Assembly: GCA_027483355.1 (NCBI GenBank) | Contig: JAIXUW010000292.1 | Span: forward strand, 222,226 to 286,225 | Origin: Alphaproteobacteria bacterium | Lineage (GTDB): Bacteria > Pseudomonadota > Alphaproteobacteria > Micavibrionales > UBA2020 | DNA: 64,000 bases | Reading direction: 5' to 3' | In this document: positions 7,766 to 62,240 of the stretch, in pieces | How positions within the stretch are numbered: position 1 is the first letter of the stretch | Layout: every line of letters begins with the position of its first letter | Made by a program: the position numbers and the translations under genes | Notes under the pieces: model-generated | What the model was told of the DNA's origin: nothing | Databases searched by the model: none | Seen by the model: the letters and a program-made list of their open reading frames with translations, nothing else

Positions 7766-8316
7766 ATGGAAATTGTAGACTCTAACCCTGAATGCGCCGC
7801 CGAGCCCGATCTCGCCATTACAACGGGCAATCCCTTCACGTTGCTTCCCGAGATTCGAGACAATTTGCTCAGTATTCTAATAGAGCAAGGATACTGCGAC
7901 ATTGCCAAACGCTTGTCGTTTATACTACGCCAGACCGAAAAGGAGTGGAATGTTTTGCAGAAAAAGCTCAATCGGCCACTTGTAAAACATTCAACCAGCC
8001 TCTAGAAAAATGGACGCCGAGTCCATCGTCGGCAAAAAGATGTATGTTCTCCGAAACCGAGTCTTTCAACCAAGATTTAAGTACATGGAACTGCGCTGAC
8101 ACAACGGGACAAGATATGGTTTACAACGCTTCGTCTTTTTCTTGCGAACATCTGCCCAGGCTCATTGGAATAGGTTGCCAATGCAAATTTGAAAATGACA
8201 TTCGCGTTTTTGTATGCGAGTACTGCAAATTGCATTTTGGGTGCGTCGGTACACCCCCTGAAACCGAGATTCCGCGTAGAACTGGACGTGTTTGGCGGCG
8301 AGCCCAACCACAATAG
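7766..8316 (+). pseudogene. F-box-like + DUF285-like (FNQxLxxW repeat) gene disrupted by a -1 frame change
   Basis: Frame A (7766..8005) encodes a good F-box (LLPEIRDNLLSILIEQGYCDIAKRLSFILRQTEKEWNVL). Frame B (open to 8316) continues with FAEKAQSATCKTFNQPLEKW...MFSETESFNQDLSTW, the repeat typical of DUF285/BspA-like proteins. The frames switch at or near the A5 run 7961-7965. I found no GT-AG interval of compatible phase. Confidence 0.5.
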
Positions 8317-18449: not shown

Positions 18450-18598
18450 GAATAGTATGTGTTTACTAGTATTATGAAAATATTTTACATGGGTAAAAAC
18501 TAGGCGAAAAATAAGTGTGAACTCGCGCGAGGGGTTGTTCCAAAAATGGAAGGTGTACACACACATACACCCCCCGGGGTGGGCGGGCGCGCACGCTT

Positions 18599-22054: not shown

Positions 22055-22104
22055 TTTAGAGCGTTTGAGAAAACCTTTATATACATGAAGAAAACATATT
22101 TTTT

Positions 22105-26040: not shown

Positions 26041-26138
26041 TTCTGGGTATTTTTTCAAACCAAAAAGCCCTTAGTTGTCTCTACGCTAGTGCTTTTCCTT
26101 TCTGAGCCGCGAGAATGCACATTTTTATTATTTACAAG

Positions 26139-42030: not shown

Positions 42031-42059
42031 TCTAACAGATCCCAAAAATAGTGTAGGTG

Positions 42060-42296
42060 TTAGAGAACAATGTAGAAAATTTGATATCGAAGAAAGAGCA
42101 CAGGCCTAGATGGGTAAAGGCAAAAAACGATGCCGACAAGAGCCAGTGAATGCAAATAATATGACACTGTGAAGAATGTGATTATTGAACAAGAATAAAT
42201 GCTCCAATGCCAAGTAGCAAATCGCTGTGGAATGAGGCTGCCCGGAACAGCAGGCAAAGTGACGACGGAATGAGAGGGAGAAAGGGGTTTGGTCAT
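42060..42296 (-). CDS. possible small hydrophobic protein (78 aa)
   Basis: ATG ORF whose stop lies 30 nt upstream of the kinase start, which is typical spacing here. It contains IYSCSIITFFTVSYYLHSLALVGIVFCLY. There is no other support. Confidence 0.25.
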   Translation of the reverse strand: MTKPLSPSHSVVTLPAVPGSLIPQRFATWHWSIYSCSIITFFTVSYYLHSLALVGIVFCLYPSRPVLFLRYQIFYIVL

Positions 42297-42910
42297 GCGA
42301 AAATCCGAGATATATCAAAAGCGTGGATTGGAAGAAAAAAGAGGCACATGTGCCACATCAAACCAATATGATATTCGATGAATTGAATAACGTAAAGCAA
42401 CGTAGCATTCCAATGAAAAGAGGTTGGGCGGCTCACCGCGAATTTCCGACAATCTGCATATCTTACATTATTATCACATGAGTAGTATGTATATACATTT
42501 GGATAAAATGGATTCAGTAAACGCCTACGTTCCTTATAAACGCCAAATCAGTATTTTTTTCGCGAACTAGAATTCAACGTTTACGCAGTTGATAACGGCC
42601 ATGTAAAATGGCTTGAATGACTTAATATTGCCAAAAATTTGTGGGCGTCAAATCAAGTGACAAAGAGCAGCACAAACTTTACACTGAATTGACTGTGGCG
42701 GCAACCTTGGCTCAGTTCAAGGTAAAGCAGGTGCGCTCAATGTGCTTGCGACGATCTCAAAACCTTGTATACTAAAGTATAGTCTTTTGTAGCCGTTTAA
42801 AACGCCGCCGTCGTACCCCCGCCCCACCTTTCTTTTCCGCGTTACCTACAATTGCGCCGGCACTGAAAAAGGGCTTTTACCGTTTATATACACATGACTA
42901 CTCTCAGACG

Positions 42911-43099
42911 TCATTTGCCAGTCGGAACTGGACGCATAGAACCGTTCATCCATTGCCGCGTTATTCCGTATAGTTCGGCTTCTTTTTTCGTAATAGTTCC
43001 AACGGCAGCCAGGTCATTCATCCAATCAGATGAAGAAGGGGCCTGTTTTTGGGGCGGTTTCGCGTCATCGCGGGCCGGTTCAGCGGGTTTGCCAGACAT
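42911..43099 (-). CDS. possible small hydrophilic protein (62 aa)
   Basis: ATG ORF (MSGKPAEPARDDAKPPQKQAPSSSDWMNDLAAVGTITKKEAELYGITRQWMNG...). Its composition is more protein-like than the overlapping plus-strand ORF 42894..43103. No other support. Confidence 0.3.
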   Translation of the reverse strand: MSGKPAEPARDDAKPPQKQAPSSSDWMNDLAAVGTITKKEAELYGITRQWMNGSMRPVPTGK

Positions 43100-43275
43100 T
43101 TGAATAAAGATGGTATTTGCACAAGAAATTGGGATATGCTAGACTTTTTGTATCGCTAGAGACGTCCGAAAACAACTCCCCCTTCTTGTAAGCCACTTTC
43201 TTAAAACCGTTTCTTGGATTTTTCTCGCCAAATCATTTTTGGTAATTTGTGTACATTTTACTAATACACAAAAGC

Positions 43276-45356
43276 ATGGGGGCTCAAACCCCATTTTCGG
43301 CCGTCGCTGTTTTTTTTGAATCTCTGCCGGAAGAACTCAAATTGACTGTGCGTTAAAACCCATTGCTTCTAAAACGTGTTCTGGCACTGACTCTTTGTTT
43401 TACGTATCTAGATCTTCTTCCTTTTGCCGTTTCGCAGTTTGAAAGCAGCGAGATTGGTCTGTAAAAAGTACGGTTCTATGCGCAAAAGTGCCAAACAAAG
43501 CCGTTGTTTTTTTTGTGACCTTGCACCTCGTATAGATGGTATCGAATTTCAATCGATCAAAGAATTTGGAAAAACTTGCATGAAAGATTCTTCGGGATAC
43601 CTCATTTCCCGCTGTACTCGACACACGACTTGGCGGAACAGCCCAAAAGCGTACCCAAAGCTGGCGCGAATACGTCGACGTTTCCTTCCAGCCCTCCCAT
43701 CATCTCATCTTCTGTGGAACCAAAACATGTTTTTTCATACGAGCCCGGCACGGACCGCGAGACGATTTTTCGTCGGTTGCATCGTGAATACAAACGCGTG
43801 AACAATCTCCAAGAGCGGTTGCTTTGGGCTATCGAAGGCCATTATTTTGAGCTTACAAAGCGGCTTGTGGAGAAAAAGGGCGCCGTGATCGAACGCGACA
43901 AGCCCAAAATGAGCTACGGTGCTCTGTACGCCGCTGCGAAAATTGGATGCGGACAGATCACAGCTTATTTGATTAATAAGGGCGCTAATATAAATGCATT
44001 GGCGGATGACAAATCGACACCGTTGTACATCGCGGCACAGAACGGGTGTATTGACTCTTTGAAATTGCTCATCAACGCCGGCGCTTCACTGGAGTGTGTT
44101 TTCAAGTACGTTTTCAAATTTTCATGTAAATATGCGATCTAACACGACTTTTGCACCGATAGTGATGGCTACACACCCCTCTACATTGCGTCCCAAACAA
44201 ATCGGGTGGAAGCCGTTCGACTTTTAGTCGACGCCAAAGCAAAAATCAATGCTTGTTGCTCTCAAGGTTCCACGCCTTTGTATATCGCCGCTCAACAGGG
44301 CCATTTGGAAGTCGCAAAGGTTTTAGTGTCCGCCGGCGCTAACATTGAATCCAAATTCAAAACGGGGTTTACTCCAATCTATGTCGCATCAAGAAACAGC
44401 CATTCGGCGATTGTAGAGTATTTGATTGAAAAAGGAGCGTCGGTCAACGCCAGTGACGGTGACGGATCGACGCCTCTTTACGTGGCATCCCAAAAGTGCG
44501 GTTTTGCGATTTTTATTCCAAACTACAATTGCATTATTCTAACAAACGTGTAAGCGCAGTGGCAGCATAGAATGTGTGCGGGTACTGCTTCAACACGGAG
44601 CTGATCACAGAATCGCCTTCATGAATGGATTCGCTCCGCTTTATATTGCTAGCCAAAATGGACACGCGGAAATTGTAGATCTTTTGTGCAAATCAGGCTC
44701 AGAGGTGAACCGCGTTGCGGACAACGACTTGACAGCGTTATACGTGGCCTGTCAAAACGGGCATGTCGGGGCTGTCGCGCGGCTGCTCAGCCACGGAGCC
44801 AATGCAGATGTTGTGTTCGACGCGGGTTATAGGCCACTTTACATTGCTTCCCAGAAGAACCATGTCGAAATCGTGGAATTGCTTGTCTCGCATGGCGCGC
44901 CTATCAACGCAGTCACGGGCAAGAAGGCAACCGCGTTATATGTTGCATGTCAAAAGGGCAATTTTCAAATTGTCAAATATCTTTTGGAACATGGAGCGGA
45001 TCCAGCGTTGCGGTTTCAAGTACGTTTTCGACGCCGCACTCCGGTTCTTTTTTACTTTCCATAATATCCAACACCTTATTTTCCCCTAGAACGGATTTAC
45101 ATGTCTGCATATTGCCGCGCAAGAAGGCAACGAAAGAGTAGTCGAGTATTTGCTAGAAAACACGAAAATCAACCCTTCAACAAAGTCGAATGATCAGAGA
45201 ATGGCAGCAGAAGTGGCAAAAAAGGCGACTATAACAAAAATAATCAGGGAGAAAATTGAGCAAATGTATACAAAGCCGGCACCCCATCCTGTGCAAACGC
45301 AGGCACTACAAAAACCTCGGTGCATGTGCCGAGAGTGTGTAGTCAGACGGTCTTAG
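43276..45356 (+). CDS. F-box + ankyrin-repeat protein, multi-exon (about 594 aa)
   Basis: Proposed exons are 43276..43347, 43412..43650, 43692..44105, 44163..44495, 44560..45019 and 45090..45356, totalling 1785 nt in frame.
- Exons 1+2 give MGAQTPFSAVAVFFESLPEELKLT|IFFLLPFRSLKAARLVCKKY, a canonical F-box.
- Later exons give about 11 ANK repeats (TPLYIAAQNGH..VV..LL..GA).
- Splicing restores the repeat register at every junction.
- The ORF-track pieces 43576, 44206, 44576 and 45150 all start on TTG/GTG, not ATG.
- The exon 2/3 junction is tentative. Confidence 0.75.
43348..43411 (+). other. spliceosomal-type intron (64 nt)
   Basis: GTGCGT...cactgactc (CTGAC about 20 nt from the 3' end)...TCTAG. 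It removes an in-frame TAA and joins the two halves of the F-box in phase 0. Confidence 0.7.
43651..43691 (+). other. candidate very short intron (41 nt, tentative)
   Basis: A frame change from the 43424 frame to the 43576 frame is required between about 43600 and 43700. GTACCC...tttccttccag gives the right phase. The alternative 43614..43660 (47 nt) also fits, so this is not resolved. Confidence 0.3.
44106..44162 (+). other. spliceosomal-type intron (57 nt)
   Basis: GTACGT...tctaacac...gatAG. It joins ...LECVF + N + DGYTPLYIASQ across a split AA|T codon. Confidence 0.8.
44496..44559 (+). other. spliceosomal-type intron (64 nt)
   Basis: GTGCGG...ttctaacaaac...gcgCAG. It joins ...TPLYVASQ + N + GSIECVRVLLQHGAD. 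Confidence 0.8.
45020..45089 (+). other. spliceosomal-type intron (70 nt)
   Basis: GTACGT...atccaacacc...ttttcccctAG (good polypyrimidine tract). It joins ...GADPALRFQ|NGFTCLHIAAQEGN in phase 0. Confidence 0.8.
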
Positions 45357-45372
45357 ACACATTGTAAACAAA

Positions 45373-46353
45373 ATGGATGCTGTTGTTCTTATTACATTGC
45401 TAGAAACAATTGATTTTGCTGCTAAAAAGCACTCCAAGCAACGCAGAAAGAACGCCGATGCCTCGCCCTACATCGGCACGCCCTCTTTGCATTTTTTTCG
45501 CGCGCGTGTATGACACAGCAACGCCTAACACTTTTATGTTCAAACACAGAGCATCCGATTGGCGTTGCCAAATTGCTGGCAGCGGTTGGTGGTGTCACCG
45601 ACATTTCTACGCTCCAAGCCGGCGTATTACACGATACGCTTGAAGACACGGACACTACATTTCAAGAATTGCAGTCCAAGTTTGGCGAGAAAGTGGCCAA
45701 AATTGTGCGGGAAGTACGTACTTTGAGTTTGGCGTTGCCAAGAACGCTAAGAACGGCTCGTTTTCAGGCCCTTGTTTCTTACAAATCCCACACAGGTTAC
45801 CGACGACAAGAGTCTGCCCAAAGACGAACGCAAGAGACTTCAGATCTCACATGCTCCTCATATGTCGACCGAGGCCAAGCTCGTAAAGCTCGCCGACAAG
45901 CTGCACAATCTTCAATCCCTTCAGATCGAGTCTCCTGCTTTATGGTCTAAATCTCGTATTCAAGGATACTTTGCGTGGGCGCACGCTGTCGTCGCTGGTC
46001 TTCGAGGCACAAATCTTTGGCTCGAATCCGCGTTGAAGCAAGTTTTCTCTGGATCGTTCAAGTGCAAAGAGGGCATGTTTCCTACTTTGCCCGAAAACAC
46101 AGAGGCTGCTCTCGAAAATTATCTCAAGGAAATGAAAGAAGTGGATCAGACGGAGAAAGCGCCAAAAATTGTGGGCATCGTCGTTGGTAACATGTGCTTA
46201 AAAACAAAGCCGTGCCAGCATGTTGTTGAAATGGTTTTTGCCGACGGTCGCAGAGAGAAAAAGCGCATGGACGCCGCTGATGTCGCTTTGGCCTTCAAGA
46301 ACGCAAACCTGACGATTCCCGATCATTTTGTAAACGATGTAGCTCACTTTTGA
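45373..46353 (+). CDS. MESH1/HDDC3-like HD-domain hydrolase ((p)ppGpp-hydrolase/small-alarmone-hydrolase fold) with extra C-terminal ~60-aa domain, 3 exons
   Basis: Exon 1 is MDAVVLITLLETIDFAAKKHSKQRRKNADASPYI.... Exon 2 is HPIGVAKLLAAVGGVTDISTLQAGVLHDTLEDTDTTFQELQSKFGEKVAKIVRE. Exon 3 is VTDDKSLPKDERKRLQISHAPHMSTEAKLVKLADKLHNL.... The order matches metazoan MESH1 as I recall it: (DFAA.KH..QRRK....PYI.HP.GVA, LLHDT.EDT, EVTDDK.LPK.ERKR.Q, KLVKLADKL.NL). The C-terminal 46165..46329 is an added domain. Confidence 0.8.
45506..45549 (+). other. first intron of the HD-hydrolase gene (boundaries ambiguous: 45506..45549 GT-AG, or 45476..45549 GC-AG)
   Basis: The acceptor aaacaCAG|AG is preceded by gcctaacac. 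The only in-phase GT donor (GTGTAT at 45506) leaves a 10-aa insertion (GTPSLHFFRA) inside the conserved PYI.HP motif. A GC donor at 45476 would give PYIEHPIGVA, matching the family motif. Confidence 0.5.
45714..45795 (+). other. spliceosomal-type intron (82 nt)
   Basis: GTACGT...cttac...cacaCAG. It joins KIVRE|VTDDKSLPKDERKRLQ in phase 0 and restores the conserved EVTDDK motif. Confidence 0.85.
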
Positions 46354-47350: not shown

Positions 47351-47376
47351 CAATAAACTCTTATGTGCTCGAAAAT

Positions 47377-47448
47377 GCCGGCGTGGTTCAATTGGTAGAA
47401 TACCTGGTTGTGGCTCAGGCGACGATGGTTCGATTCCACCCGCTGGCA
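47377..47448 (+). tRNA. tRNA-His (anticodon GTG)
   Basis: Manual cloverleaf:
- acceptor gccggcg/cgctggc (one G-U)
- D arm gttc-aattggta-gaat
- anticodon arm cctgg-ttGTGgc-tcagg
- 4-nt variable region
- T arm gatgg-ttcgatt-ccacc (one A-C mismatch, B-box GGTTCGATTCC)
- discriminator A
There is no encoded G-1 or CCA, which is the eukaryote style. Confidence 0.7.
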
Positions 47449-47453
47449 TTGCG

Positions 47454-47530
47454 GACGGCTTAGCTCAGGTGGGATAGTGCTTCATCACGCGCGTATGGGG
47501 AGGTCGCTGGTTCGACCCCAGCAGCTGTCG
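47454..47530 (+). tRNA. tRNA-like gene with abnormal 11-nt anticodon loop (isotype undetermined)
   Basis: Manual fold:
- acceptor gacggct/agctgtc (one G-U)
- U8-A9
- D arm gctc-aggtggga-tagt (3 bp)
- anticodon stem cttca/tgggg (5 bp, two G-U)
- loop tcacgcgcgta (11 nt, contains the palindrome ACGCGCGT)
- variable region aggtc
- perfect T arm gctgg-ttcgacc-ccagc
It starts 5 nt after tRNA-His and is followed by a T5 run. Confidence 0.5.
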
Positions 47531-48795: not shown

Positions 48796-48806
48796 TACAG
48801 AAAAGA

Positions 48807-48983
48807 TCAATGAGTGACCTCCAATACGGCCATGCGATCATACAAATTGCGGATTCGATAATCGATTAGCTTGCGTTCGGCGTCGCTCGACGTTCTGGAC
48901 TTTTTTTGTTCAAGCGCTCTCACTTCTCTCTGCAGTTGTTCAATCATTCTTCCTTGCCAATTGTCGCTACTGGGAGAAGACAT
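48807..48983 (-). CDS. possible small coiled-coil protein (58 aa, below the ORF-track cutoff)
   Basis: My translation is MSSPSSDNWQGRMIEQLQREVRALEQKKSRTSSDAERKLIDYRIRNLYDRMAVLEVTH*. It fills an otherwise empty spacer and converges on 48436..48795. Confidence 0.35.
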   Translation of the reverse strand: MSSPSSDNWQGRMIEQLQREVRALEQKKSRTSSDAERKLIDYRIRNLYDRMAVLEVTH

Positions 48984-49163
48984 TTTTGTTCTATAAAGTC
49001 AATCTTGCGATTTTTTGCACTGGCAAACCACGAAGAGCACAGTTCAAGTGAAAAAAACTTTCCTTTTGGGGGTGCTTTGTGAACGCGCGAGCTCTGCGGC
49101 CGAAAATCGGAGTTTCCATGTGCTGGCCGATTATTTTTAGAATTGATTCACATAAATACGCGA

Positions 49164-49294
49164 AATAACGCAACGTAACGCAGCGCGACGCAACGCGGCG
49201 CACCAGCGCGCAAAGGACCGCAGCGCAGCGCAACGCAACGCGACGCACCGCAACCCACCGCAGCGCAGCGCGACGCACCGCAGCGCAACGCAGC
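49164..49294. repeat. degenerate pentanucleotide array (CGCAR/CGCGA/CGCAC)n, about 26 units
   Basis: cgcaa cgtaa cgcag cgcga cgcaa cgcgg cgcac ... cgcag cgcaa cgcag, with strict 5-nt phasing visible across thirteen 10-nt blocks. It lies in the divergent spacer between 48983(-) and 49394(+). It creates three spurious overlapping minus-strand ORFs (AALRC-type). Confidence 0.85.
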
Positions 49295-49393
49295 TCTTGA
49301 AATTCCCTTGCCGTTTATATTTAACAAACAATAAATCCATAATAATACGACAAATACATTCTCAATATTAAGTCTAAAACGTTTCTGCAAAAT

Positions 49394-50062
49394 ATGGATT
49401 TAGAAGAGAGCAAACCACGAAAGAAAAGACCGCTGCCGTATATTGCATCGGGTACTTTTGACCTTTTGGACAATATATTCGAACCAAATCCAAATCTCAA
49501 AAATACATCTAAGCGCGCAAAACATAACCCTGCAACGGCTGTGACGCTCAGTGTCCCAACTCGCTCGACCGTGATACATCGATTCGGAAAGGCAAAAGCG
49601 GTCGCATTCGTCAAATCTGATATTTTGGGGTTCTCCGAACAAGACATTCAACTATCTTTGCATTGGGCGGAGTCGGACACGACGGAGCTCGGAAAATGGT
49701 ACACAGGTTTATCTGCTGCCAACTTTGCGCCCAAAAGTTTGGAAATGACTTCCAACACCAACGAAATGGAGATATATTACACTATCCCCAAATCGTATGA
49801 ACCCAGAGTGGCACAGGAAGTCCGGCAAAATCTATTAGTGCCCGGAACCAAGGTAACCGCGTTTTTAAAAGCGAATCAACAAGAATTTTCATTTGTGATA
49901 TCTCGTTTGCAACAATCGACCGCGCAACGGCAGCACAGCGGAGTTATGTTTATACTCGCCGCGGAATCTTCCGGAAACGTGTCCGCCCAGCCCGCCAACT
50001 TCTTTAAAAAGCCGGCACCCAGACGTGAAATACGTAAAAATGCGTTTGGAATCCATTTATAA
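49394..50062 (+). CDS. hypothetical protein with N-terminal NLS-like SKPRKKRP
   Basis: 222-aa ATG ORF (MDLEESKPRKKRPLPY...). No other motif recognised. Confidence 0.6.
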   Translation: MDLEESKPRKKRPLPYIASGTFDLLDNIFEPNPNLKNTSKRAKHNPATAVTLSVPTRSTVIHRFGKAKAVAFVKSDILGFSEQDIQLSLHWAESDTTELGKWYTGLSAANFAPKSLEMTSNTNEMEIYYTIPKSYEPRVAQEVRQNLLVPGTKVTAFLKANQQEFSFVISRLQQSTAQRQHSGVMFILAAESSGNVSAQPANFFKKPAPRREIRKNAFGIHL

Positions 50063-50178
50063 ATGTACAATTGAAATGTAAAATTTTGCTTTTTATGTGT
50101 GACTCTTTCCCAAAAAGGAAGGTGCGACGTCGGCGTTACTTTTATATGTCGTCTTTGACTCCTACTATACATTATATA

Positions 50179-50919
50179 CTACAAATTCACCGTTTCAAGT
50201 CCGTTCCGTGTAGTCGAACCGTTGTCGGGAACAAACCACGTTAGCGGAGCTGAAGAATTTCTGCGAGGGCTGCGTGGTGGCGATCGCGGCCGTCTTCCTT
50301 CAATTTCCATTTTATTCCAAGCCATGTTATCGAGATAAATTCGAAAATGCAAGCCGATCTTTTCCGCTGAAACTCCGGACGAGTTTAAAAGTCGCAGCGC
50401 CTGCGACAGACTGTGATTTCTGTACTTGACCAAAAAATATACAATGTTGGACACTGATCGCGACATTCCTTCTCTGCAGTGTATCAAAACAGTGTATTTT
50501 TCCCGCAAAAGCCGGTCGATTGTACTGGCCGACGTTTTGAACTTTTCTTTGTTGAATTCAAAGTCGTCCTCTATGTTGTAATCATGTAGCGCTAATTCTC
50601 TGCCAGTCTCTTTTACTGGGTCGGCCAATGAAATAATATGGGTAATTCCAAGCTCGCTAAATGTTTTAAGAGCTTCTTCAGAAGCAATAGTTGCATTGGA
50701 CAAATACAAACGACCTTGGTTTGGTTCGTCAAGCAAGATCTCAGTAGGCTTTTCAAATCCAGTAAACGGAAGTGGTTCAAACGCAATGTATTGAACTTGC
50801 GGCGTTACTTTGCGCTTTTTTGTAGGCGATTCGTAGCCAGAGTTCGATTCGTAATCGTCCTCCATTGCGATTAGCCTCGCTTCTTTTGTGTGGTTTCCTG
50901 TAAATGCAATCATTCGCAT
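50179..50919 (-). CDS. dual-specificity (Cys-based) protein phosphatase
   Basis: ORF 50179..50922 starts on GTG; ATG at 50919, with an alternative MEDDYES at 50865. Active-site loop VLIHCREGMSRSVSNIVYFLV (HCxxGxxRS). An upstream D in IEDDFEF is a possible general acid. PTKKRKV NLS-like motif. Confidence 0.8.
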   Translation of the reverse strand: MRMIAFTGNHTKEARLIAMEDDYESNSGYESPTKKRKVTPQVQYIAFEPLPFTGFEKPTEILLDEPNQGRLYLSNATIASEEALKTFSELGITHIISLADPVKETGRELALHDYNIEDDFEFNKEKFKTSASTIDRLLREKYTVLIHCREGMSRSVSNIVYFLVKYRNHSLSQALRLLNSSGVSAEKIGLHFRIYLDNMAWNKMEIEGRRPRSPPRSPRRNSSAPLTWFVPDNGSTTRNGLETVNL

Positions 50920-51012
50920 CACATGTGATTATTTATTTGTATACTCCGAAAGCTAAAAAAAAAGAAGGCGAGAGTCAAGTCCGACCCGGGACCGCGTTCT
51001 ATTTTTAGCTCG

Positions 51013-51032
51013 CCACCTACTCAGGTAGGTGG
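51013..51032. repeat. perfect 8-bp stem / 4-nt loop hairpin (ccacctac tcag gtaggtgg)
   Basis: Read directly from the sequence. It abuts the iteron array. The half-site CCACCTACT recurs at 52312..52320. Confidence 0.7.
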
Positions 51033-51080
51033 ACTCGGCCTCGACTCTGGCTCGACTCGGGTTCGACTCTGGGGCGACTC
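51031..51080. promoter_or_regulatory. five iterons containing (C/G)GACTC at exact 11-bp spacing
   Basis: GACTC occurs at 51032, 51043, 51054, 51065 and 51076 (ggactcggcct cgactctggct cgactcgggtt cgactctgggg cgactc). One copy per helical turn, in an ORF-poor region. Confidence 0.55.
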
Positions 51081-51115
51081 GCTCTCGCGCGTATTTTTTG
51101 TTCTATCATGTAAAA

Positions 51116-51418
51116 ATGTGTTTGATAAACCATATACATAGCAAATATATACACGTCCGGGCGCGTAAAATTTGCTGTGGGGAGAAAAGTCGGGAGCGTC
51201 GCAACGACCTCGTTGCGATCGTAAAAACTTTTTGCCCGCAGGCGATTCGCAGTTTTATAGAGACATGTCTTAAATCATGCGCGCAAATTAGGTGCACAGA
51301 TATAATAACAAATACCGCGGGTTGGATGCAAAGGACCGTAAGCACAATGCGTTTTGTGCGGCAGACTTTGAATTACTCAGCTTCTTCACGCCGCGTGATT
51401 TTACCACATGTTTATTAG
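51116..51418 (+). CDS. possible small Cys-rich protein (100 aa), best-preserved member of a locally triplicated decayed family
   Basis: MCLINHIHSKY...RRNDLVAIVKTFCPQA. Related truncated copies start at 51704 (MNLIGGINDRGKCNDP...) and 52058 (MCLGKIDCDWAKTNPNEVVAIGKTFRA*). Confidence 0.25.
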   Translation: MCLINHIHSKYIHVRARKICCGEKSRERRNDLVAIVKTFCPQAIRSFIETCLKSCAQIRCTDIITNTAGWMQRTVSTMRFVRQTLNYSASSRRVILPHVY

Positions 51419-52417
51419 CACAATATATAAGAATACACGTTTGAAATACAAACTCGCTGGTTTTATTCAAATCCGCGCTATACAATCTTGGTGCTAGCAT
51501 GCAAAAGCGTCGTTCGGCGCTATACCATTTTTTTGATCCGCGCAAAAATTCATATACACTTTCACATATCTAGTTAGGAATTTACAAATCAATCAGAGGT
51601 CTTAAATACGGCGAGATGCACGGATAATTCTACACGCGACCAAATGCATCGGCAAATGATATTATACTCAATTCCGTCCATAACTTTCATGTTGAAAATC
51701 AAAATGAATTTGATTGGCGGGATAAACGATAGAGGCAAGTGCAACGACCCAACAAGCGGTCTCACGATGACTGGAAACTTTTTTGCGGTGGGACCCGTCC
51801 GGGTGTACCCTCCCGGGCGAAAAAGTACGAACGTCGTTAGGACGTTGCGGGTTCCTCTATCGTTTTTCTTTCAGGACAAATTCTCAGAACATCTGATTTT
51901 GTATACTGTTGACTAATCTGAATATAATTGCATCCGCCAACGCATTGTATCGGTGCCAGGTCGATTTCATGCGACTTTGGGGTCGAATCTACGCCGGGCG
52001 ATTTAAGAACCGAAACCATTTTTTTAGTCATATTCATATTGTATAGATCAATAAAAAATGTGTTTGGGGAAAATCGATTGCGATTGGGCCAAAACTAACC
52101 CAAACGAGGTCGTTGCGATTGGGAAAACTTTTCGGGCCTAGGCAACGTCACACATTTCCGGGGATAATTTCTTTTACTACATAAAAATACATGTAACAGT
52201 ATACAATTGGTTGGAGCAAAAATGTCGGGGCGGAGAGCGCGAACCGAGCGTTTTTGTCCGCGGTCGCCCAGAAAAAAAAACCCAAAAGGCGCGTTAAGGC
52301 GCCGCTCGCCCCCACCTACTAATGTTGCGCGCCTGCGCCGTTCTTCAAGTATCTTAAGTGCAATTTTCACATTTGTATGCGTCCATATATCTTGTGAACC
52401 TCATTTTCATTTGAAGA

Positions 52418-52792
52418 ATGGAGAATCCAATGTCCGCGAGCGAGAAAACGCAACGTTTGCTGGCTGCGCTAGTGCAACAGAACGCGGTTATCCTAAAAGA
52501 GTTTGGAAAAATCGCAGTGACCATGTCACGCATGTGCAAGAAAGTGGATGCTTATATTGCGACAACAGCGACAAAGGAGATGGAGAGGCGTTTTTCCGAC
52601 GCTGCCACCGACGACTGTGCGGTAACTAAGACTCGTGCCAGTGAGCTTGCGCCGCCGCCCATTTCATCCAACATGACACGACAATTGAGTCGGTTGACGG
52701 AACTTGCTAATTATGAAGAAAATTTGGATATTGCGCGCGCGTATGATGCGCAGCCACTCAGTGATCTTGTCTCAAACCTGGGTACGCTCTGA
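52418..52792 (+). CDS. hypothetical protein (124 aa)
   Basis: ATG ORF (MENPMSASEKTQRLLAALVQQNAVILKEF...), predicted helical. No motif recognised. Confidence 0.5.
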   Translation: MENPMSASEKTQRLLAALVQQNAVILKEFGKIAVTMSRMCKKVDAYIATTATKEMERRFSDAATDDCAVTKTRASELAPPPISSNMTRQLSRLTELANYEENLDIARAYDAQPLSDLVSNLGTL

Positions 52793-52835
52793 TATTTTTT
52801 CTGTTTTTACATATAACAATAACTGACTATGTCAA

Positions 52836-55118: not shown

Positions 55119-55294
55119 GTGTGGCGCAAAATTTTTTTTTCAAGAGTGCCGTGTGTAAAATTAAAAATGAAGTTAAAACGAGCACGTTTCGTTGGTCGTG
55201 AAAAAGGGGAGCATCAATTGGATTATACTCTTTCTGTGCGCGCGCGGTTTTTTTTTGTATTAGACCTGCCAAAGTGAGCCAAAAGATATAACGA

Positions 55295-58200
55295 ATGGCC
55301 ACGGGAGGTAGATACAAGCCGTATCTTACCGCTCCGGAGCCAGAGACCCCGCTTGAATCGACTCCTCTTACAGAATACCCGCCGACAGCTCCATTACAAT
55401 TACTTTCGACTGTCGGACAAAATGCCGCATCAGCGGGCGAAAAGGCCGCGTTTTCCGCAGGTTGGAGGGGCCTCAGTTTAGTGGGCGCGACTGTTGCCGC
55501 AACAGCGTTTGCCGTATCGGTCATCTCAATCGTCTACGTTGTTGCTTATAACGGGGCGTTTGATAATGTCCCCTCGGGCGCTCTTTTATTCCGGTCGGCG
55601 TCAAACTCTTCAGTGCTCGGAGGCACACTCAGGGCCACGCTCACTGAGAACGGAACACTTGCTTCCAACACTGGGTATTTCCAAAAACTCTACATTAACA
55701 ATAGATTGGTTACTATTGGAAACGGATCAATAGACTTGGGAGGCTCTGTTATCGGCCCCATTTCGTCGACTCCAGGCAAGGGAGTTCGATGGTCCTCTTC
55801 GGACGGTGTCTACATTGACGAAGCCCCTTATTTCGTGGACGATAACGGCGTTTTTACAAACGTGACTAGTATTTATTCGAGTCAAGGGTTTTATGAGGGC
55901 GGAGTGAAGCGAGGAGACGTGTTTTCTCTCGCCACAAGCGGGCCGTCGCTCTCAGGAAAGTTTGCAGTCTTCCCGTCGACGGATTCAAAACAAATTTCGA
56001 CGGCTTTGGGCATTTCAAGTCAGCCAGGCGGAGTAATCTTGATCGACTCTCTCGCAGTTGCGAATGCGATTAATGCAAACGGGACAGCGAATTTCCAAAC
56101 TGTCAACGCTCAAAATGTGACGACATTGGGCTTAAATGCTCGAGGACAATCACAATTTGAGACTATTGACGCGATGAACATATTTGTAAACGGCACGAGG
56201 CTCGGGACAGGTTTCGGAAATCTTTCCACAATCACGGGCGCTACTCCGTTCAAGCTGCCCGTGTATTTATCAAATTCAACGGTTGGCCCTTCAAATATCA
56301 CGCTCGTAGGCGCGAATTCTCTTGAAAACATTGGCGTTGTGTCCGCTCAAACCGTACAAGCAACAGAAATATTTGTGAACGGGTCCAGAGTAGGAACGGG
56401 AAATGCCACTGTTAGCGCCGGAATCTCGCCTCTCAAACTGATTACGATTGTGAATGGGAATGAGATAATCAGCACTAACATATCCGTTGTTGGCGCTGGT
56501 TCGTTGAGCGGTGTGAATGTCGTTGAAGTGCAAACCGTGAACGCTCAGACTATAACGGCCAATTCGGTCACCGTAAACGGGACAGCAGTCGGATTTGGAA
56601 ACGCTAGCTTTGTTGGACCCGAGCTCTCGAACGCTGTGGTCGTATCAGACGGCTCGAACGGAAAAGTGAAGGCCTCCCAAGTGCTGATCAACGCGTCGAA
56701 TTCTATTTCCGGAATTCAATCTCTACAAGCTCAATCTGTGTTTGTAAACGGTGAAAACGTGTCTCAGATCTTTATGAGACGGCCTACGGGCGAACTGATA
56801 CCGTCCGCGAGCGTACTCGCCGCGCTTAACAATGCCTCTGGTCAGTACGAGCTTTATCCGACTATGGCATTGGTGTTCCCCAATGGAACTATTCGCGTTT
56901 TTAGATTGGACATTGAATCCGGAGGAACGGTTGCAGGAGAACCTATCGGGACGCTGAAAGCGCCTGTCGGACCCATCGACGACAATACGGTTCTTGTGAA
57001 TTCTAACGGCGATCGCTATTCGTCAAAGGGCTCTTCTATGAAAATCTTCCCCAACGGAACTGTCACGGGCGTGTCTAGCTTGTACGCCGAGGACATTTTT
57101 CTATTCGTAAACGGCCAATGGGTGAGCTTTTTCACATTGATCCAGAACATTTCCAATCCGAATTCTACTATATTCGGTAACATGTTTGGACCCAGTGTCG
57201 CAGTGGACACTTTTTCCATCGCCACCTATGCAACAAGTCGAAATTTAGCCGGGACTACAGTCCGCGCGTTCCCCAACGGTACCATGGATCGGATTTTGGA
57301 TTTATTCGCTCAATCTATTATCACAAGTGCCATATCCACGCCTGGAGGTGTTCTTCAGGTCACGGCAGCGAATACTACGTTTTCAGGCGCACTAAGAGCC
57401 CAAAGTGTGGCAACGGCGACGATTGAATCGACAGCGCCCACACTTGTCATTTTGGCGGCAAACACTTCTTTTACTGGCCCTGTGACCGCGCCGATTGCTT
57501 CGACCTCAAGAATTGAAAGTTTGTCAAGTACATTGACCGTGCTGGCTGCGAAAACTGAGTTCAGCGGTGCCGTGGACGCTACATCCGGAAATTTCAGCGG
57601 AGCCGTGGATGCTACATCCGGAAGTTTCAGCGGAGCTGTGAACGCCGCTTCAGGAAACTTTAGCGGAGCCGTAAGCGCCGCCTCTGGTACTTTCAACGGG
57701 CCTGTGACGGCCACAACGGGAACGTTTGATTCCGTGGTCACTGACACGATTAACGGCACTCTAAACGTGTTCCCGGATTCCGGAGTGATGACTATACAGG
57801 GCGTAGGAGAAAACAAACTGATTTTACGAGGAGAATCGACGGACAACGTCATCACAATGTCTGCAGACGATAGTAGCGCACCTGGATATTCCTACATTGA
57901 TTTTAACGGAAGACGGCCTGGTGGCGGCCCGCCGCTCAACCCTTCAAAGGCAACATTCACCTTGTACAGCGATCAATCTGGATCTATTAGCGACGTGGGA
58001 CTGTTGTACCAAGTGGGAGTAAGCGCGCTTCCTCTGCTGAGATATGCTCCGGCAGACAGCACATTTCTGCAATTGCGACAGAGTTCTATGCCTCAAATAA
58101 GAGTGCCAATCATTGACTCCCTTGGAAACATCTCGATCAATCCTCTGGTAGCAGTCACGTTGAACAACAAAAATCTGGAAAATGTCAACGCGTTGACCGC

Positions 58201-60724
58201 AGCCTCGGGAACATTCAGCGGGACTGTCTCCGCAACAGTCGGCGCATTTGGGTCTATTACAGCAAACGCGATCGCGCCTCCAAGCGGAACATTGACTGTG
58301 GCTGGAATTTTGCAGCTGAACACTCCTGGAGTATCCGAAGTGTTTTTGACTTCAACGTCCGCCAGTCGGTTCAGATGGACAAACGGAATCCGAAACGGCA
58401 CAGGCTCAGGAAACATTGATTTGCAAATCTTCAATTCGCTGGGCCCCCGTCAGGGATGGTCCGTATTGGCATGGAACGGATACTGGAACGCGGGTATTCA
58501 GCGATACGACACTACCAAATACAGTTACCAAATGATCGTGGATCAAAGTCCTACGGATGACAATTGGAGTCTCCGTTCGTTTTCACCCACTGAATCAACA
58601 CACATTTTAGTACAGCCTGCTGCGTACCCTGGAGTGATTGCGCCCAACGGGATATCGGCATCAGAAGTACTTACGCCTACCGTACGATCCACTGGAAATC
58701 TGTCACTTAATCCAGGAGGTACCGCCGTCACATTGAATAACAAAGCGATAATCGACTTGGCAACGTTGAACACGTCGACTTCCACGGATTTTCAGCTGAA
58801 TTTAGGGACTGACCAGACCATAATCAGAGGCACTGGCGCAAATAGGTTGCTATTCCAGGGCGCTAGCGGCAACGGAAACAGTCGCATTGTAATCCAGGCC
58901 AGCAACTCGCAGCCGGGAAACACTGCAATCATTTTCAACGGCCCAGCCGCGGATGGCAGTGTCGTAGACAATTCAAAGTTTCGGTACTTTATCGAAGCCG
59001 ACCAGACAATTGGGTTCGACCAGTTTCAAATCAGAGCTAGGCAAGGCGTGGCCGAGTACTTGCTGTTGTCGTTTGACCCACTGAGCAGTTTGACTATGGC
59101 CTCGTCTGTACCCTTCTCTTCTCCTACGCTATTCGCCGCGAATTCGGTAACCACTCCACTTGTAAACACGCTTTCAGGAGATCTATCGCTGAACCCCGCA
59201 GGCTCAAACGTGAATTTCAACTCTAAAAACGTGACCAATATTAACACGCTCAGTCTGTCTAGAATCGTCAGCGCACTCGGTGACATTTCCATCCTCCCTG
59301 CTGGTTCTAATATCAGAGTGACGGGTAAGAATATCATAGGCGCGACCAATATTGGCACTCAAGGTATAACAGGAGCGCCCAGTGTTGGTGTTCTTCTCGG
59401 AGGCGGCGGCGCTTTCACGCTACAAAGTTTTGACGGAGTGACCACTGTGGACTATCTCTCTGCTACGGGCGGGACTTTATTCGTCAATGTAAATATGGAT
59501 TTGGGCGGAACGACGACATTGTCTCCCACTGGGATTGCGACTCCTACACTCACAGCGACTACAATTACATCGCCAGGAATCTTGTCAATCAACCCCGGAG
59601 GCGCAAGCGTGACGTTTAACACAAAATTACTGACGGATATTGCAAGTGTTTCCACGCCGATATTGACAAGTCCAAGCAGTCTGACATATAACGTGCCTAC
59701 AATTGGAGATTCGCATGCGTTTTCCGTAAATTCAGTTCCGCGACTTAGCGTTACGACTTCCACAGTGACTCTGGCATCGGGTGTCTCGCTTACAACTTCG
59801 GCCAACAATCTCGTTTTGAACCCGGCCGGTGCCAGTATCGACATGAGCACAAAATCGCTCATTCAAGTGGGAAGCATCGACGCGTCCTCGTCAACGGCGG
59901 ATTTCACTTTCCGAACAGTGGGAGCTCCAGATAACAGTTTGCGAGTTTGGAACAACGTTGTGGGAGCAGGAGCGTCAAATGTTCGAATACAGTCTCTCTT
60001 GCAAGCCCCGGGACTCATGTATCTTGCTTTTAATGGAGGGTTCAGCGGCACTGAATTTGCCGACAATACCGCAAAGAGAAGATGGAGATTCGGAGCCGAC
60101 CAGAGATCGACTACAGATCAAATATTTTTGGAGGGTTGGATTTCAAACACGCCGACAAATTACATGGTATTGGCACCGGGCACAACGCCTCGCGTGCAAT
60201 TTCCATTAGGCATTCGCCCTACGGTTGTCGATATTCCGTATGGATGTTTCAACGGGCAGCAAATCACGCGCAACACGCCGGGTAACACTGCAGTTGTATG
60301 TGGGTCGACAGCGGGCTCTAGTACAATGCCCGCTGGATTGATGAACCGTGCCGGGGCGTACTTTAGGCTGCAGTCGGCGTGGCAATTGACAAACATGGCC
60401 AATTCTGCTACGTCCAGTGTTGTCTTGGTCGCTCTTGTTGGATCGGGTGGCATAACTCTCGGCGTTTTTCCTGCATCCAGCACGTTCGGAGCTGGATTTG
60501 TACAAACCGAAACCTTCTGCTATTATGTTTCATCCACGACTGTAACTTGCACGTGGTTTATGACAGTGAATGCAGGAGGAACAACGACGTATTCTGGGAC
60601 AGGAAACGTTAGTACACTAAATCTAGCAATCGACCAAGCCTTGAGTCTGCAACTGAACCAAAATTTGACTCCGACCGGCAACACCGACATTAGATTGATA
60701 AATTACACCATGGAAAGAATGTAA
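55295..60724 (+). CDS. giant N-terminally anchored, sequon-rich fibre/adhesin-like protein (1809 aa)
   Basis: ATG ORF with an N-terminal TM segment (LSLVGATVAATAFAVSVISIVYVVAY).
- Dozens of N-x-S/T sequons.
- ~55-aa modules (..V.AQ.V.A..IFVNG...G.GN).
- Five 11-aa SGAVDATSGNF units.
- Six or more L(S/V)(L/I)NP(A/G)G..V.(L/F)N.K motifs.
- Beta-rich C-terminal ~150 aa.
All internal antisense ORFs are judged spurious. Confidence 0.8.
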   Translation: MATGGRYKPYLTAPEPETPLESTPLTEYPPTAPLQLLSTVGQNAASAGEKAAFSAGWRGLSLVGATVAATAFAVSVISIVYVVAYNGAFDNVPSGALLFRSASNSSVLGGTLRATLTENGTLASNTGYFQKLYINNRLVTIGNGSIDLGGSVIGPISSTPGKGVRWSSSDGVYIDEAPYFVDDNGVFTNVTSIYSSQGFYEGGVKRGDVFSLATSGPSLSGKFAVFPSTDSKQISTALGISSQPGGVILIDSLAVANAINANGTANFQTVNAQNVTTLGLNARGQSQFETIDAMNIFVNGTRLGTGFGNLSTITGATPFKLPVYLSNSTVGPSNITLVGANSLENIGVVSAQTVQATEIFVNGSRVGTGNATVSAGISPLKLITIVNGNEIISTNISVVGAGSLSGVNVVEVQTVNAQTITANSVTVNGTAVGFGNASFVGPELSNAVVVSDGSNGKVKASQVLINASNSISGIQSLQAQSVFVNGENVSQIFMRRPTGELIPSASVLAALNNASGQYELYPTMALVFPNGTIRVFRLDIESGGTVAGEPIGTLKAPVGPIDDNTVLVNSNGDRYSSKGSSMKIFPNGTVTGVSSLYAEDIFLFVNGQWVSFFTLIQNISNPNSTIFGNMFGPSVAVDTFSIATYATSRNLAGTTVRAFPNGTMDRILDLFAQSIITSAISTPGGVLQVTAANTTFSGALRAQSVATATIESTAPTLVILAANTSFTGPVTAPIASTSRIESLSSTLTVLAAKTEFSGAVDATSGNFSGAVDATSGSFSGAVNAASGNFSGAVSAASGTFNGPVTATTGTFDSVVTDTINGTLNVFPDSGVMTIQGVGENKLILRGESTDNVITMSADDSSAPGYSYIDFNGRRPGGGPPLNPSKATFTLYSDQSGSISDVGLLYQVGVSALPLLRYAPADSTFLQLRQSSMPQIRVPIIDSLGNISINPLVAVTLNNKNLENVNALTAASGTFSGTVSATVGAFGSITANAIAPPSGTLTVAGILQLNTPGVSEVFLTSTSASRFRWTNGIRNGTGSGNIDLQIFNSLGPRQGWSVLAWNGYWNAGIQRYDTTKYSYQMIVDQSPTDDNWSLRSFSPTESTHILVQPAAYPGVIAPNGISASEVLTPTVRSTGNLSLNPGGTAVTLNNKAIIDLATLNTSTSTDFQLNLGTDQTIIRGTGANRLLFQGASGNGNSRIVIQASNSQPGNTAIIFNGPAADGSVVDNSKFRYFIEADQTIGFDQFQIRARQGVAEYLLLSFDPLSSLTMASSVPFSSPTLFAANSVTTPLVNTLSGDLSLNPAGSNVNFNSKNVTNINTLSLSRIVSALGDISILPAGSNIRVTGKNIIGATNIGTQGITGAPSVGVLLGGGGAFTLQSFDGVTTVDYLSATGGTLFVNVNMDLGGTTTLSPTGIATPTLTATTITSPGILSINPGGASVTFNTKLLTDIASVSTPILTSPSSLTYNVPTIGDSHAFSVNSVPRLSVTTSTVTLASGVSLTTSANNLVLNPAGASIDMSTKSLIQVGSIDASSSTADFTFRTVGAPDNSLRVWNNVVGAGASNVRIQSLLQAPGLMYLAFNGGFSGTEFADNTAKRRWRFGADQRSTTDQIFLEGWISNTPTNYMVLAPGTTPRVQFPLGIRPTVVDIPYGCFNGQQITRNTPGNTAVVCGSTAGSSTMPAGLMNRAGAYFRLQSAWQLTNMANSATSSVVLVALVGSGGITLGVFPASSTFGAGFVQTETFCYYVSSTTVTCTWFMTVNAGGTTTYSGTGNVSTLNLAIDQALSLQLNQNLTPTGNTDIRLINYTMERM
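57563..57727 (+). repeat. 5 x 33-bp tandem coding repeat
   Basis: Encodes SGAVDATSGNF SGAVDATSGSF SGAVNAASGNF SGAVSAASGTF NGPVTATTGTF. Confidence 0.8.
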
Positions 60725-60866: not shown

Positions 60867-62240
60867 ATGGACCCATCTCTCCCCGAGTCTATCCTGTCAC
60901 GCATGGGCGTTCCTAGCGAAATTGTGGCGATTATATTTGACTACATTCCTCTGGACCGTCTCGGAAAGGTCCTCTCTACATGCAAAAACGGTTTGGCACT
61001 GATACCCGTGGATTACATTAGAGTGCTTGATGTCACGCGATTTGAATCGTGGAATGACGTCATGCGAGCCCTTGTCGCGATTCCCATTTCTCGCGTCTCC
61101 GTTTTCAAGGTTTCGCACTCTACATACAAGATGACCTGGGACGATATTCCGACATATTGTACGAGCAAATTACTTCAAATTTTTGCACCTCTTATGGAGT
61201 CTGAGTTGAGTGTTGACTGGAAACTGTTTGAAAAGTGGGCCTTTCACTACAACGGCAACCTGAGTTTGCATCGACTTTTCGATAGATTCAATGCATTTTC
61301 AGTCTCGCGTGTTTACCAGCCGGCGATGCCTACAACGGAACCCACTGCTCCAATTTTTAACAAACCTGGAAGGTCAATACGGGTTATGTACCTACCTTTC
61401 AGCTGCCCGTTTGCTTCAAAGCCTTCCACATTACATGCATTGGTCAGGAAATGCAAGAAGATTGACACGGAATATAAATGCGTTCTTTCTCGTCGCCCGC
61501 TCAGTTTACACGCGCAACTCGAAAGGTGTTGGTGCCGTCAAATCACCGAGCCCGCCGTGAAGACGAAAAAGCGAAAAATCTTTTTGCAGCACACGGTTGT
61601 TTATTCTCACGGGCCCAAGTGCCTGCCTGGCATTATCGCCAATGTGCACAAGCTTGAGAAGGCGAAAATCAAACTTTGCGTGCACCCTGAAGATATGCAC
61701 AAGCAACCCGTGGAAGTCTGGGATGCTGTTTTGGACAATGGGCTGTACAACATTACCAAGGTGATATGTTTGCTACGCGAGATTGTCCGTGGAAATATGT
61801 CGGCAGAGCACGCGACGCATTTGGCCGGAAAGATTCTTTCTGTCATGTTATCCGCTCCAAGAAATGCGGAGATGCCAGCGTTTACCAATTACGACATCTG
61901 CCCCGTCGCAATGCGCTGTGTGTACTCAAAGTTTCAAGAATTGAAAGCCGAATACAGCAATGAATATTCGGCCGAAGTTTCAGAGAGACTTGACTACATT
62001 GAAAGCAGCATGGCTGCGTGGTGGAAAGATTCGTGCCGCGTTGTCAAAAACGACGTCGATTTTTTGCGCGCATGCATGAGAGAGGAGGACGGAGACATTT
62101 TGAAAAGGATGCTTTTCTCGGTCGATTCGGACAAGAAACTGATCGAGGTCGAAGACGGCAACGAGGATGCAGCCAGCAGTAGCAGCAGCTCTTCGTACTC
62201 GATTTATTCTATGGATTCTGACAACGAGTCTGACTATTAA
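60867..62240 (+). CDS. F-box-like protein with acidic/Ser-rich C-terminus
   Basis: 457-aa ATG ORF. MDPSLPESILSRMGVPSEIVAIIFDYIPLDRLGKVLSTCKNG (F-box-like). The tail is EDAASSSSSSSYSIYSMDSDNESDY. Confidence 0.65.
   Translation: MDPSLPESILSRMGVPSEIVAIIFDYIPLDRLGKVLSTCKNGLALIPVDYIRVLDVTRFESWNDVMRALVAIPISRVSVFKVSHSTYKMTWDDIPTYCTSKLLQIFAPLMESELSVDWKLFEKWAFHYNGNLSLHRLFDRFNAFSVSRVYQPAMPTTEPTAPIFNKPGRSIRVMYLPFSCPFASKPSTLHALVRKCKKIDTEYKCVLSRRPLSLHAQLERCWCRQITEPAVKTKKRKIFLQHTVVYSHGPKCLPGIIANVHKLEKAKIKLCVHPEDMHKQPVEVWDAVLDNGLYNITKVICLLREIVRGNMSAEHATHLAGKILSVMLSAPRNAEMPAFTNYDICPVAMRCVYSKFQELKAEYSNEYSAEVSERLDYIESSMAAWWKDSCRVVKNDVDFLRACMREEDGDILKRMLFSVDSDKKLIEVEDGNEDAASSSSSSSYSIYSMDSDNESDY

Follow-up and report, generated by a model that had tools for sequence, protein, structure and literature searches.

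Attachment proteins built of a shaft and a knob are classical, and the adenovirus fibre, with its tail, repeating shaft and beta-sandwich knob, is one of the described systems against which the locus reported here can be set. This locus is an uninterrupted gene for a protein of 1809 amino acids in contig JAIXUW010000292.1 (assembly GCA_027483355.1), where it lies in a 64-kb window, that is, the whole stretch of 64,000 nucleotides that was analysed (positions 222,226 to 286,225 of the contig). We give slightly better than an even chance to the reading that a large DNA virus with nuclear expression uses the protein as a type II-anchored, glycan-stalked attachment fibre, probably a trimer, and we infer its topology, glycosylation, oligomeric state, location in the virion and binding of a ligand or receptor. 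From the N- to the C-terminus it comprises a tail of 58 residues, an anchor helix, a proximal stalk of about 600 residues, repeats of 30 and 11 residues, LNP repeats interleaved with beta modules, and a knob (Table 1). It thus resembles the adenovirus fibre in its N-terminal anchoring, long repetitive stalk and putative receptor-binding C-terminal head, but the adenovirus fibre is bound to the capsid and not to a membrane. The HN/G proteins of paramyxoviruses resemble it in their type II topology and N-glycosylated stalk, both of which are predicted for the 1809-residue protein, although its stalk is rich in beta repeats rather than a coiled coil and is about ten times longer than that of HN. 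No sequence or Pfam relationship links it to HN/G or to the adenovirus fibre.

Nearer to it in their segments are the fibres and spikes of phages with an endosialidase chaperone of the Peptidase_S74 type (S74), such as the L-shaped tail fibre pb1 of T5, the K1F endosialidase stalk and the fibres of rV5-like phages. These too are modular, with short beta repeats into which beta domains are inserted and a tip for binding at the distal end, and through the proteins P0026 and P0042 described below they share the LNP repeats and the type B module. Unlike them, the 1809-residue protein has neither the S74 chaperone nor a phage N-terminal attachment domain, and it is distinguished by an N-terminal transmembrane anchor, a sequon-rich stalk and a eukaryote-type, apparently intron-containing genome. 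The mosaic adhesive trimer (MAT) fibres of Bdellovibrio bacteriovorus, which are trimeric adhesins of the cell surface and of chimeric make-up, have beta-helical bodies like those of phages and are tipped by an S74 chaperone or a beta-sandwich (PMC10769870). In the non-S74 subgroup (Caulton et al. 2024, PMC10769870), chimeric surface fibres with shuffled segments and a varying tip carry a beta-sandwich end in place of the chaperone, and the protein studied here likewise ends in a predicted beta sandwich. It differs from the MAT fibres in having no MAT N-terminal domain of ~130 residues and no signal peptide (NCBIfam: 0 families), in showing no sequence match to the solved MAT fragments in the PDB, and in being anchored by a transmembrane helix in a eukaryotic or viral context. 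Phage-type fibre, lectin and adhesin genes are already known from marine eukaryotic double-stranded DNA viruses: in prasinoviruses, genes for phage tail-fibre proteins and ConA-like lectins, for an endosialidase chaperone and for YadA-like adhesins lie in hypervariable regions, and their products are thought to govern host range (PMC12906663). The setting is like the one proposed here, a marine eukaryotic double-stranded DNA virus with phage-type fibre genes; the likeness is one of description only, and the passages on the prasinovirus genes mention no membrane anchor (PMC12906663). The present case is new in that a conserved N-terminal membrane anchor and a sequon-rich stalk are joined to segments of the tail-fibre and MAT types, in a tiny family that is confined to uncharacterised marine contigs and whose modules have no solved structural relative.

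Anchor, stalk and family

An exhaustive HMMER search of 1.84 billion cluster representatives with residues 610-1809 alone as the query, on which the family size given here rests, returned 222 proteins at E <= 1e-3; among the best 150 of these, 135 align solely with the stretch of 30- and 11-residue repeats. Just three proteins share the full architecture, and they come only from marine or environmental metagenome contigs. The first, P0007 (2095 residues; E 3.6e-164 over residues 610-1809), is located on contigs of 132 and 208 kb, has a Tara Oceans fragment in its cluster and is 44.7% identical to our protein over residues 89-689 (E 5e-148). P0008 (1766 residues) is found on the NCBI metagenome contigs VFQM01/VFQO01, and P0014 (1220 residues) in a Logan assembly. 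The number and type of internal segments vary among these members, P0007 having six modules of type A and P0008 about 14 LNP repeats in tandem, which, judged on the sequences, is the behaviour of a modular fibre. A word-indexed search of 5.8 billion proteins recovered only the identical protein itself, on an NCBI contig of 292,368 bp. No relatives came from IMG/VR, which was scanned with the protein and with the alignments of the N-terminus and of the knob, and a scan of JGI metagenomes found only the two contigs of P0008. A scan of GTDB genomes with module B gave one uncultured bacterium and a weak match in Afipia. Sequence searches of the PDB, in which the complete protein and the module, knob and stalk profiles served as queries, yielded nothing, and no paralogue was found within the window. 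The sole Pfam match of the protein at E <= 1, DUF7278, was discarded as spurious.

The protein is rich in small and polar residues (S 11.7, T 11.1, G 10.5, A 9.1, V 8.4 and N 7.7%); Ser, Thr, Asn and Gly together account for 41% of it, and Pro for 4.9%. Charged residues are few (E 1.9%, K 1.4%), and a coiled-coil stalk is unlikely for this reason. All four cysteines lie within residues 1651-1752, in the last 160 residues. Four open reading frames run antisense within the gene (57355-57855, 58093-58434, 59026-59358 and 59452-59862, all on the minus strand); they were rejected as genes, as their tblastn matches are antisense translations of LNP repeats, that is, artefacts of repeat composition.

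The sequence-only reading, an earlier annotation made by a model from the DNA without database searches, had proposed an N-terminal transmembrane anchor. This can now be placed after the first 58 residues, where an uncharged stretch of 27 residues forms the strongest hydrophobic peak of the protein. A conserved AFSAxW(R/K) motif, whose phenylalanine (F53) is invariant across the alignment of all four family proteins, immediately precedes the helix. A matching helix is present at residues ~50-90 of P0007, P0008 and P0014 and is absent from the shorter proteins that share modules with them. There is one internal helix near the N-terminus and no cleavable signal peptide, and all 37 N-x-S/T sequons are C-terminal of the helix, from which we infer a type II (N-in, C-out) topology. 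The membrane anchor points to a fibre that is carried on an envelope or displayed on a membrane and is not bound to a capsid, which the earlier annotation had missed.

The domain next to the membrane is clearly conserved in P0007 and P0008 and partially in P0014. It contains an Arg-Gly-Asp (RGD) tripeptide with counterparts at residue 201 of P0007, residues 231 and 913 of P0008, and residues 425 and 476 of P0014; this conserved element may be structural or may serve as a cell-attachment motif. Four stalk repeats follow (residues 233-305, 308-368, 369-434 and 435-491), and their xxVNG motif occurs four times against 0.10 expected in shuffled sequences. They correspond to modules that had been described as being ~55 residues long and that prove to measure 57-73.

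A very high density of sequons, taken to imply heavy glycosylation, had also been noted, and this holds for one half of the protein only. The 37 sites amount to 2.05 per 100 residues, as compared to 0.59 in other long open reading frames of the window, but the residue composition by itself leads to an expectation of 30.2 +/- 4.4, so that there is no excess over the whole length (z 1.5). The proximal region (residues 86-830) is enriched, with 28 sequons against 13.6 +/- 3.1 expected (z 4.6), and the distal region (residues 830-1809) is depleted, with nine against 16.3 (z -2.2). Moreover, in the collinear alignment over residues 86-700, 14 of the 24 sequons share columns with 14 of the 16 in P0007. 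By these counts the proximal stalk has the look of a region that is truly glycosylated, in contrast to the distal half.

Table 1. Features of the 1809-residue protein and their coordinates in the window (aa, amino acids; AF2, AlphaFold2)
Feature	Residues	Position in window	Strand	Remarks
Complete open reading frame, ATG to stop	1809 aa	55295..60724	+	Open reading frame call; uninterrupted
N-terminal tail, Pro/Thr/Glu-rich	1-58	55295..55468	+	Predicted cytosolic or virion-interior side
Single transmembrane signal-anchor helix (predicted)	59-85	55469..55549	+	KD19 maximum 2.2; GLSLVGATVAATAFAVSVISIVYVVAY
Membrane-proximal conserved domain, motifs NGTL..TGYF and GP.S....V.W	86-240	55550..56014	+	Family alignments
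RGD tripeptide	206-208	55910-55918	+	Inside GG(V/I)xRGD(V/L/M); kept in 4/4 family members
Four stalk repeats of 57-73 aa, sequon-rich	233-491	55991..56767	+	Each ends ...AQxVxAxxIxVNGxxVGxGN
Conserved middle stalk, ~75-aa repeats with (F)PNGT(I/V/M) motif	501-690	56795..57364	+	~45% identity to P0007
Two 30-aa repeats (692-751) and five 11-aa FSGAVDATSGN-type repeats (756-810)	692-810	57365..57730	+	
Beta module M1 (type A)	815-945	57737..58129	+	Six type A copies in P0007
LNP repeat 1	941-973	58115..58213	+	
Beta module M2 (type B, WNGY...DQ)	1000-1130	58292..58684	+	
LNP repeat 2	1131-1163	58685..58783	+	
Beta module M3 (type A)	1165-1290	58787..59164	+	
LNP repeats 3 and 4, in tandem	1292-1358	59168..59368	+	
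LNP repeat 5	1425-1457	59567..59665	+	
LNP repeat 6	1501-1533	59795..59893	+	
Beta module M4 (type B, FNGG...RRWRFGADQR)	1535-1640	59897..60214	+	AF2 model all-beta
C-terminal knob	1641-1809	60215..60721	+	Alignment with P0007 and P0008; AF2; Foldseek

Distal segments, knob and phage-type relatives

Beyond the stalk, a tandem DNA repeat of five 33-bp units (57560-57724) encodes the 11-residue repeats, which follow the pattern F-x-G-x-V-x-A-x-x-G-x. The five units had been recognised before, at coordinates (57563-57727) that were 3 nt out of phase. Of the three motifs that were counted against shuffled sequences, the one other than xxVNG and LNP occurs six times against 0.03 expected. The LNP motif is present in six units of 33 residues, starting at residues 941, 1131, 1292, 1326, 1425 and 1501 (six against 0.02 expected in shuffles); at least six copies had been reported at intervals of 100-200 residues, of which the number stands and the spacing does not, as the units start 34 to 190 residues apart. 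Four beta modules of ~130 residues and of two subtypes (M1 and M3 of type A, M2 and M4 of type B) are interleaved with the LNP repeats. Each of the repeat systems reported in the sequence-only reading is present beyond chance by the shuffle test.

Some of these segments occur in recognisable fibre proteins. Residues 757-807 are 53-55% identical over 51 residues to annotated tail-fibre genes of rV5-like Escherichia coli phages (115 records, tblastn). The LNP repeats are also present in P0026, which ends in an endosialidase chaperone domain (Pfam Peptidase_S74, 1.1e-8), and two copies of the type B module are found in P0042, a signal-peptide protein with Peptidase_S74 (3e-16) whose N-terminus matches the NCBIfam family Bdello_MAT_N (NF053851) at 1.4e-9, a score below the curated cut-off. 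Judged on sequence, the term phage-derived can be used with confidence only of those relatives that bear S74 or are of the rV5 type. The 1809-residue protein belongs to neither the S74 nor the MAT family but is constructed in the same way. A trimeric autotransporter adhesin of the YadA type was considered and rejected, there being no Pfam match and the anchor being N-terminal and helical.

Structure models were made as AlphaFold2 monomers of two globular pieces, viz., M4 together with its preceding LNP repeat and the knob, which were modelled apart because MAFFT had misaligned the knob rows in the combined alignments A3 and A4. The knob aligns in P0007 and P0008 at all four of its cysteines (1651, 1669, 1742 and 1752) and carries the motif GS(A/S)T(I/M)PAG(V/L)MNR(A/V)GA. 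Its model, built from alignment A5, is an all-beta sandwich with a predicted local distance difference test score (pLDDT) of 70 and a predicted template modelling score (pTM) of 0.70, in keeping with the beta-rich C-terminal head that had been discerned in the sequence. The model of M4 and the LNP repeat (alignment A6, 17 sequences) has a pLDDT of 80.4, and its ordered part consists entirely of beta strands.

A Foldseek search of the BFVD database matched the knob model to C-terminal parts of proteins from uncultured tailed phages and Clandestinovirus, with E-values down to 7.5e-9 and template modelling scores on the query (TMq) of 0.52-0.63. Weaker matches in the same database include the depolymerase of Klebsiella phage KP34 (TMq 0.40) and collagen-repeat proteins of Solumvirus and Pithovirus LCPAC202 (TMq 0.34-0.38). 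The best matches in the PDB are legume lectins, the carbohydrate-binding domain of the short tail fibre of cyanophage A-1(L), a tail protein of cyanophage A4 and the binding domains of botulinum toxins. No PDB match exceeds a TMq of 0.48, and these likenesses are therefore suggestive only. With regard to a ConA-like lectin/glucanase fold, the legume lectins, among the top PDB matches, superimpose with a TMq of 0.33-0.48 and a root mean square deviation of 7-14 Å; the predicted phage C-terminal domains agree better (TMq up to 0.63). As models, the two pieces support a distinct distal head of the fibre-tip kind. AlphaFold on segments had been proposed earlier as a check of a beta-helical shaft with a receptor-binding tip: both pieces fold as beta domains in the monomer models and are not disordered, and a beta-helical shaft is not demonstrated by them. 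Both the phage-fibre-type segments and the knob model support what had been put forward, namely a modular, fibre-like organisation that ends distally in a separate head.

Genomic setting

The window holds about 50 densely packed genes and is rich in ORFans. About seven of its genes have a Pfam match, and these are of eukaryote type: RCC1/Kelch, a Sina RING/zinc finger, a subtilase, a kinase-like protein and a P-loop ATPase. A homologue of the HD-domain protein MESH1/HDDC3 (45370-46350, plus strand) is up to 62% identical to the human MESH1 sequence used as query. It is divided into three frame-shifted pieces (45397-45483, 45552-~45713 and 45793-46047) by two gaps of ~70-80 nt, the second of which is bounded by GTACGT...CAG. 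The gaps look like spliceosomal introns, and as such would imply nuclear expression of the DNA of the window. We take the window to be part of a eukaryotic, intron-containing and ORFan-rich genome and not a phage, a point that had escaped the sequence-only reading, and would assign it to a nuclear-expressed large DNA virus or a virus-derived element of a marine eukaryote; a mirusvirus origin is offered as a hypothesis only. The EhV promoter nonamer shows no enrichment. The neighbourhoods of P0007, P0008 and P0014 are likewise rich in ORFans, and no synteny was found between the neighbours of our gene and those of its relatives. The sole other similarity between our locus and the contexts of P0008 is that of an open reading frame with DUF285-like repeats (7792-8316, plus strand), which matches a DUF285 gene located 3 kb downstream of the P0008 homologue (L001 16181-18001, L002 10665-12485).

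Several further features of the window were observed. F-box-like N-termini (such as LPxEIxxxIFxYL) were noticed by eye in five neighbours (2578-3426 and 3449-4348 on the minus strand; 6616-7689, 34609-35832 and 60867-62240 on the plus strand), suggesting an expanded paralogous family from the sequences; Pfam does not confirm an F-box in these at E <= 1e-3. A protein of 1378 residues (14466-18602, minus strand) has Kelch repeats in its N-terminal and RCC1 repeats in its C-terminal part, and around 16000-18000 there is a local spike in G+C content (58.5%, with a GC skew of +0.23) in a window that is otherwise ~47% G+C. The adjacent open reading frames at 18599-26058 (minus strand), which encode 1169 and 1317 residues and overlap by 4 nt, match nothing in Pfam, PHROGs or the PDB sequences and are candidates for lineage-specific structural proteins. 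The stretch 47376-47530 (plus strand) contains a tRNA-His(GTG) gene and, 5 nt beyond it, another tRNA-like element, to which ARAGORN gives a four-base anticodon; Rfam confirms the first only. Homopolymeric A/T motifs (TGAAAAAA, or T8-9 then G) are found less than 100 nt upstream of many open reading frames, for example at 55195-55294, at 5-7x the background k-mer frequency, and may be promoter or terminator elements. Two regions (42045-46350 and 48800-52800) have few long open reading frames; they contain fragments of an ankyrin-repeat protein (44621-45064) and the apparently spliced MESH1 gene, and may hide further intron-containing genes.

Proposed model, alternatives and significance

Based on these features, an uncleaved signal-anchor (residues 59-85) would insert the protein into the membrane of the endoplasmic reticulum, leaving the 58-residue tail on the cytosolic side, later the tegument or virion interior, and the remaining ~1720 residues in the lumen, later outside the envelope or on the cell surface. 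The proximal ~750 residues would form a conserved N-glycosylated stalk of beta repeats of ~60-75 residues that lifts the tip off the membrane, and the distal ~1000 residues a recombining chain of segments of the types found in phage tail fibres and bacterial chimeric adhesins (11-residue repeats, LNP repeats and beta modules of ~130 residues). The beta-sandwich knob, putatively stabilised by disulfides, would bind a ligand on the host surface, most plausibly a glycan. A parallel homotrimer is probable by analogy with every characterised relative of such segment types.

A number of observations weigh against an attachment fibre of a large DNA virus. Nothing direct places the protein in a virion or shows a viral source, and among the genes of the window none could be recognised as coding for a capsid, a polymerase or packaging. 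Scans of the protein against Pfam, PHROGs and NCBIfam assign it to no family, and the Pfam and NCBIfam scans find in it neither an S74 chaperone (PF13884) nor a MAT N-domain. The matches to the 11-residue repeats are heterogeneous and include bactofilin-type and apolipoprotein-like/GPCR proteins, so that this similarity is partly one of repeats or composition. No matches to phage families were seen on the contig of P0025 (L008), one of the short relatives that share modules. The knob alignment holds three sequences only, the PDB matches of its model are weak (TMq <= 0.48, with high deviations), and the monomer model of module B has no fold match in the PDB (best E 0.84).

That no virion hallmark gene was seen in the window would suit display on the plasma membrane of an infected or carrier cell, or a cellular adhesin, where the protein would act in adhesion between cells or to a substrate, in aggregation or in superinfection exclusion and would not be a virion component. 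A type II anchor with a sequon-rich ectodomain fits any surface protein of the secretory pathway, the source contig carries intron-containing, eukaryote-like genes, and the bacterial analogues, the MAT fibres, sit on cells and not on virions. We nevertheless judge this unlikely: the dense, ORFan-dominated neighbourhoods of the gene and of its three relatives are unlike cellular chromosomes, a fibre with a knob and a varying number of segments is typical of fast-evolving host-recognition proteins, and the family is very sparse, with three relatives among the cluster representatives searched, none in IMG/VR and two P0008 contigs in JGI.

Where in a virion such a fibre would be held is a related matter. 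An internal membrane together with vertex-associated fibres is found in many large DNA viruses that infect protists, and a transmembrane anchor bearing a long fibre is compatible with anchoring in a lipid membrane inside an icosahedral capsid, with projection at a special vertex (spike- or stargate-associated). This arrangement is improbable given that the conserved sequons imply an ectodomain that is lumenal in the endoplasmic reticulum and topologically external, that ~1720 residues would need to pass through the capsid shell, and that no double-jelly-roll major capsid protein was found nearby. Far less probable still is a mucin-like, mostly disordered glycan coat devoid of specific receptor binding, for which the high content of Ser, Thr, Asn and Gly and the 37 sequons might speak. 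The two pieces modelled as compact beta domains (pLDDT 70 and 80) exclude a disordered mucin as far as models can. Proline is scarce, the long repeats have conserved hydrophobic patterns, the stalk is ~45% identical to that of the orthologue P0007 over 600 residues, the distal half is depleted in sequons, and the conserved terminal domain contains four conserved cysteines.

With the attachment fibre of a nuclear-expressed large DNA virus as the favoured reading, we would go further only tentatively, and regard it as doubtful but worth stating that the protein is the founding member of a group of envelope attachment spikes from an uncharacterised, intron-containing and possibly mirusvirus-like lineage of nuclear-expressed marine large DNA viruses, in which a type II anchor and glycosylated stalk were fused to fibre segments of phages and predator adhesins. 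If so, modules for host recognition would have been exchanged across the divide between viruses of prokaryotes and viruses of eukaryotes, and the membrane-proximal RGD would be a second contact site, of the integrin type or another.

To our knowledge, the attachment protein is unknown for almost every large DNA virus of marine eukaryotes that has not been cultured, which makes the determinants of host range a blind spot in these viruses, and the fibre gene provides a concrete candidate for host recognition. Its tip is a possible marker for comparison between strains. Two beta domains that have no solved structural relative are added as well, viz., the type A/B module and the repeat of the proximal stalk. 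The protein thus presents a testable case in which segments of phage-type fibres may have been reused on a membrane protein of a eukaryotic virus or of a virus-derived element.

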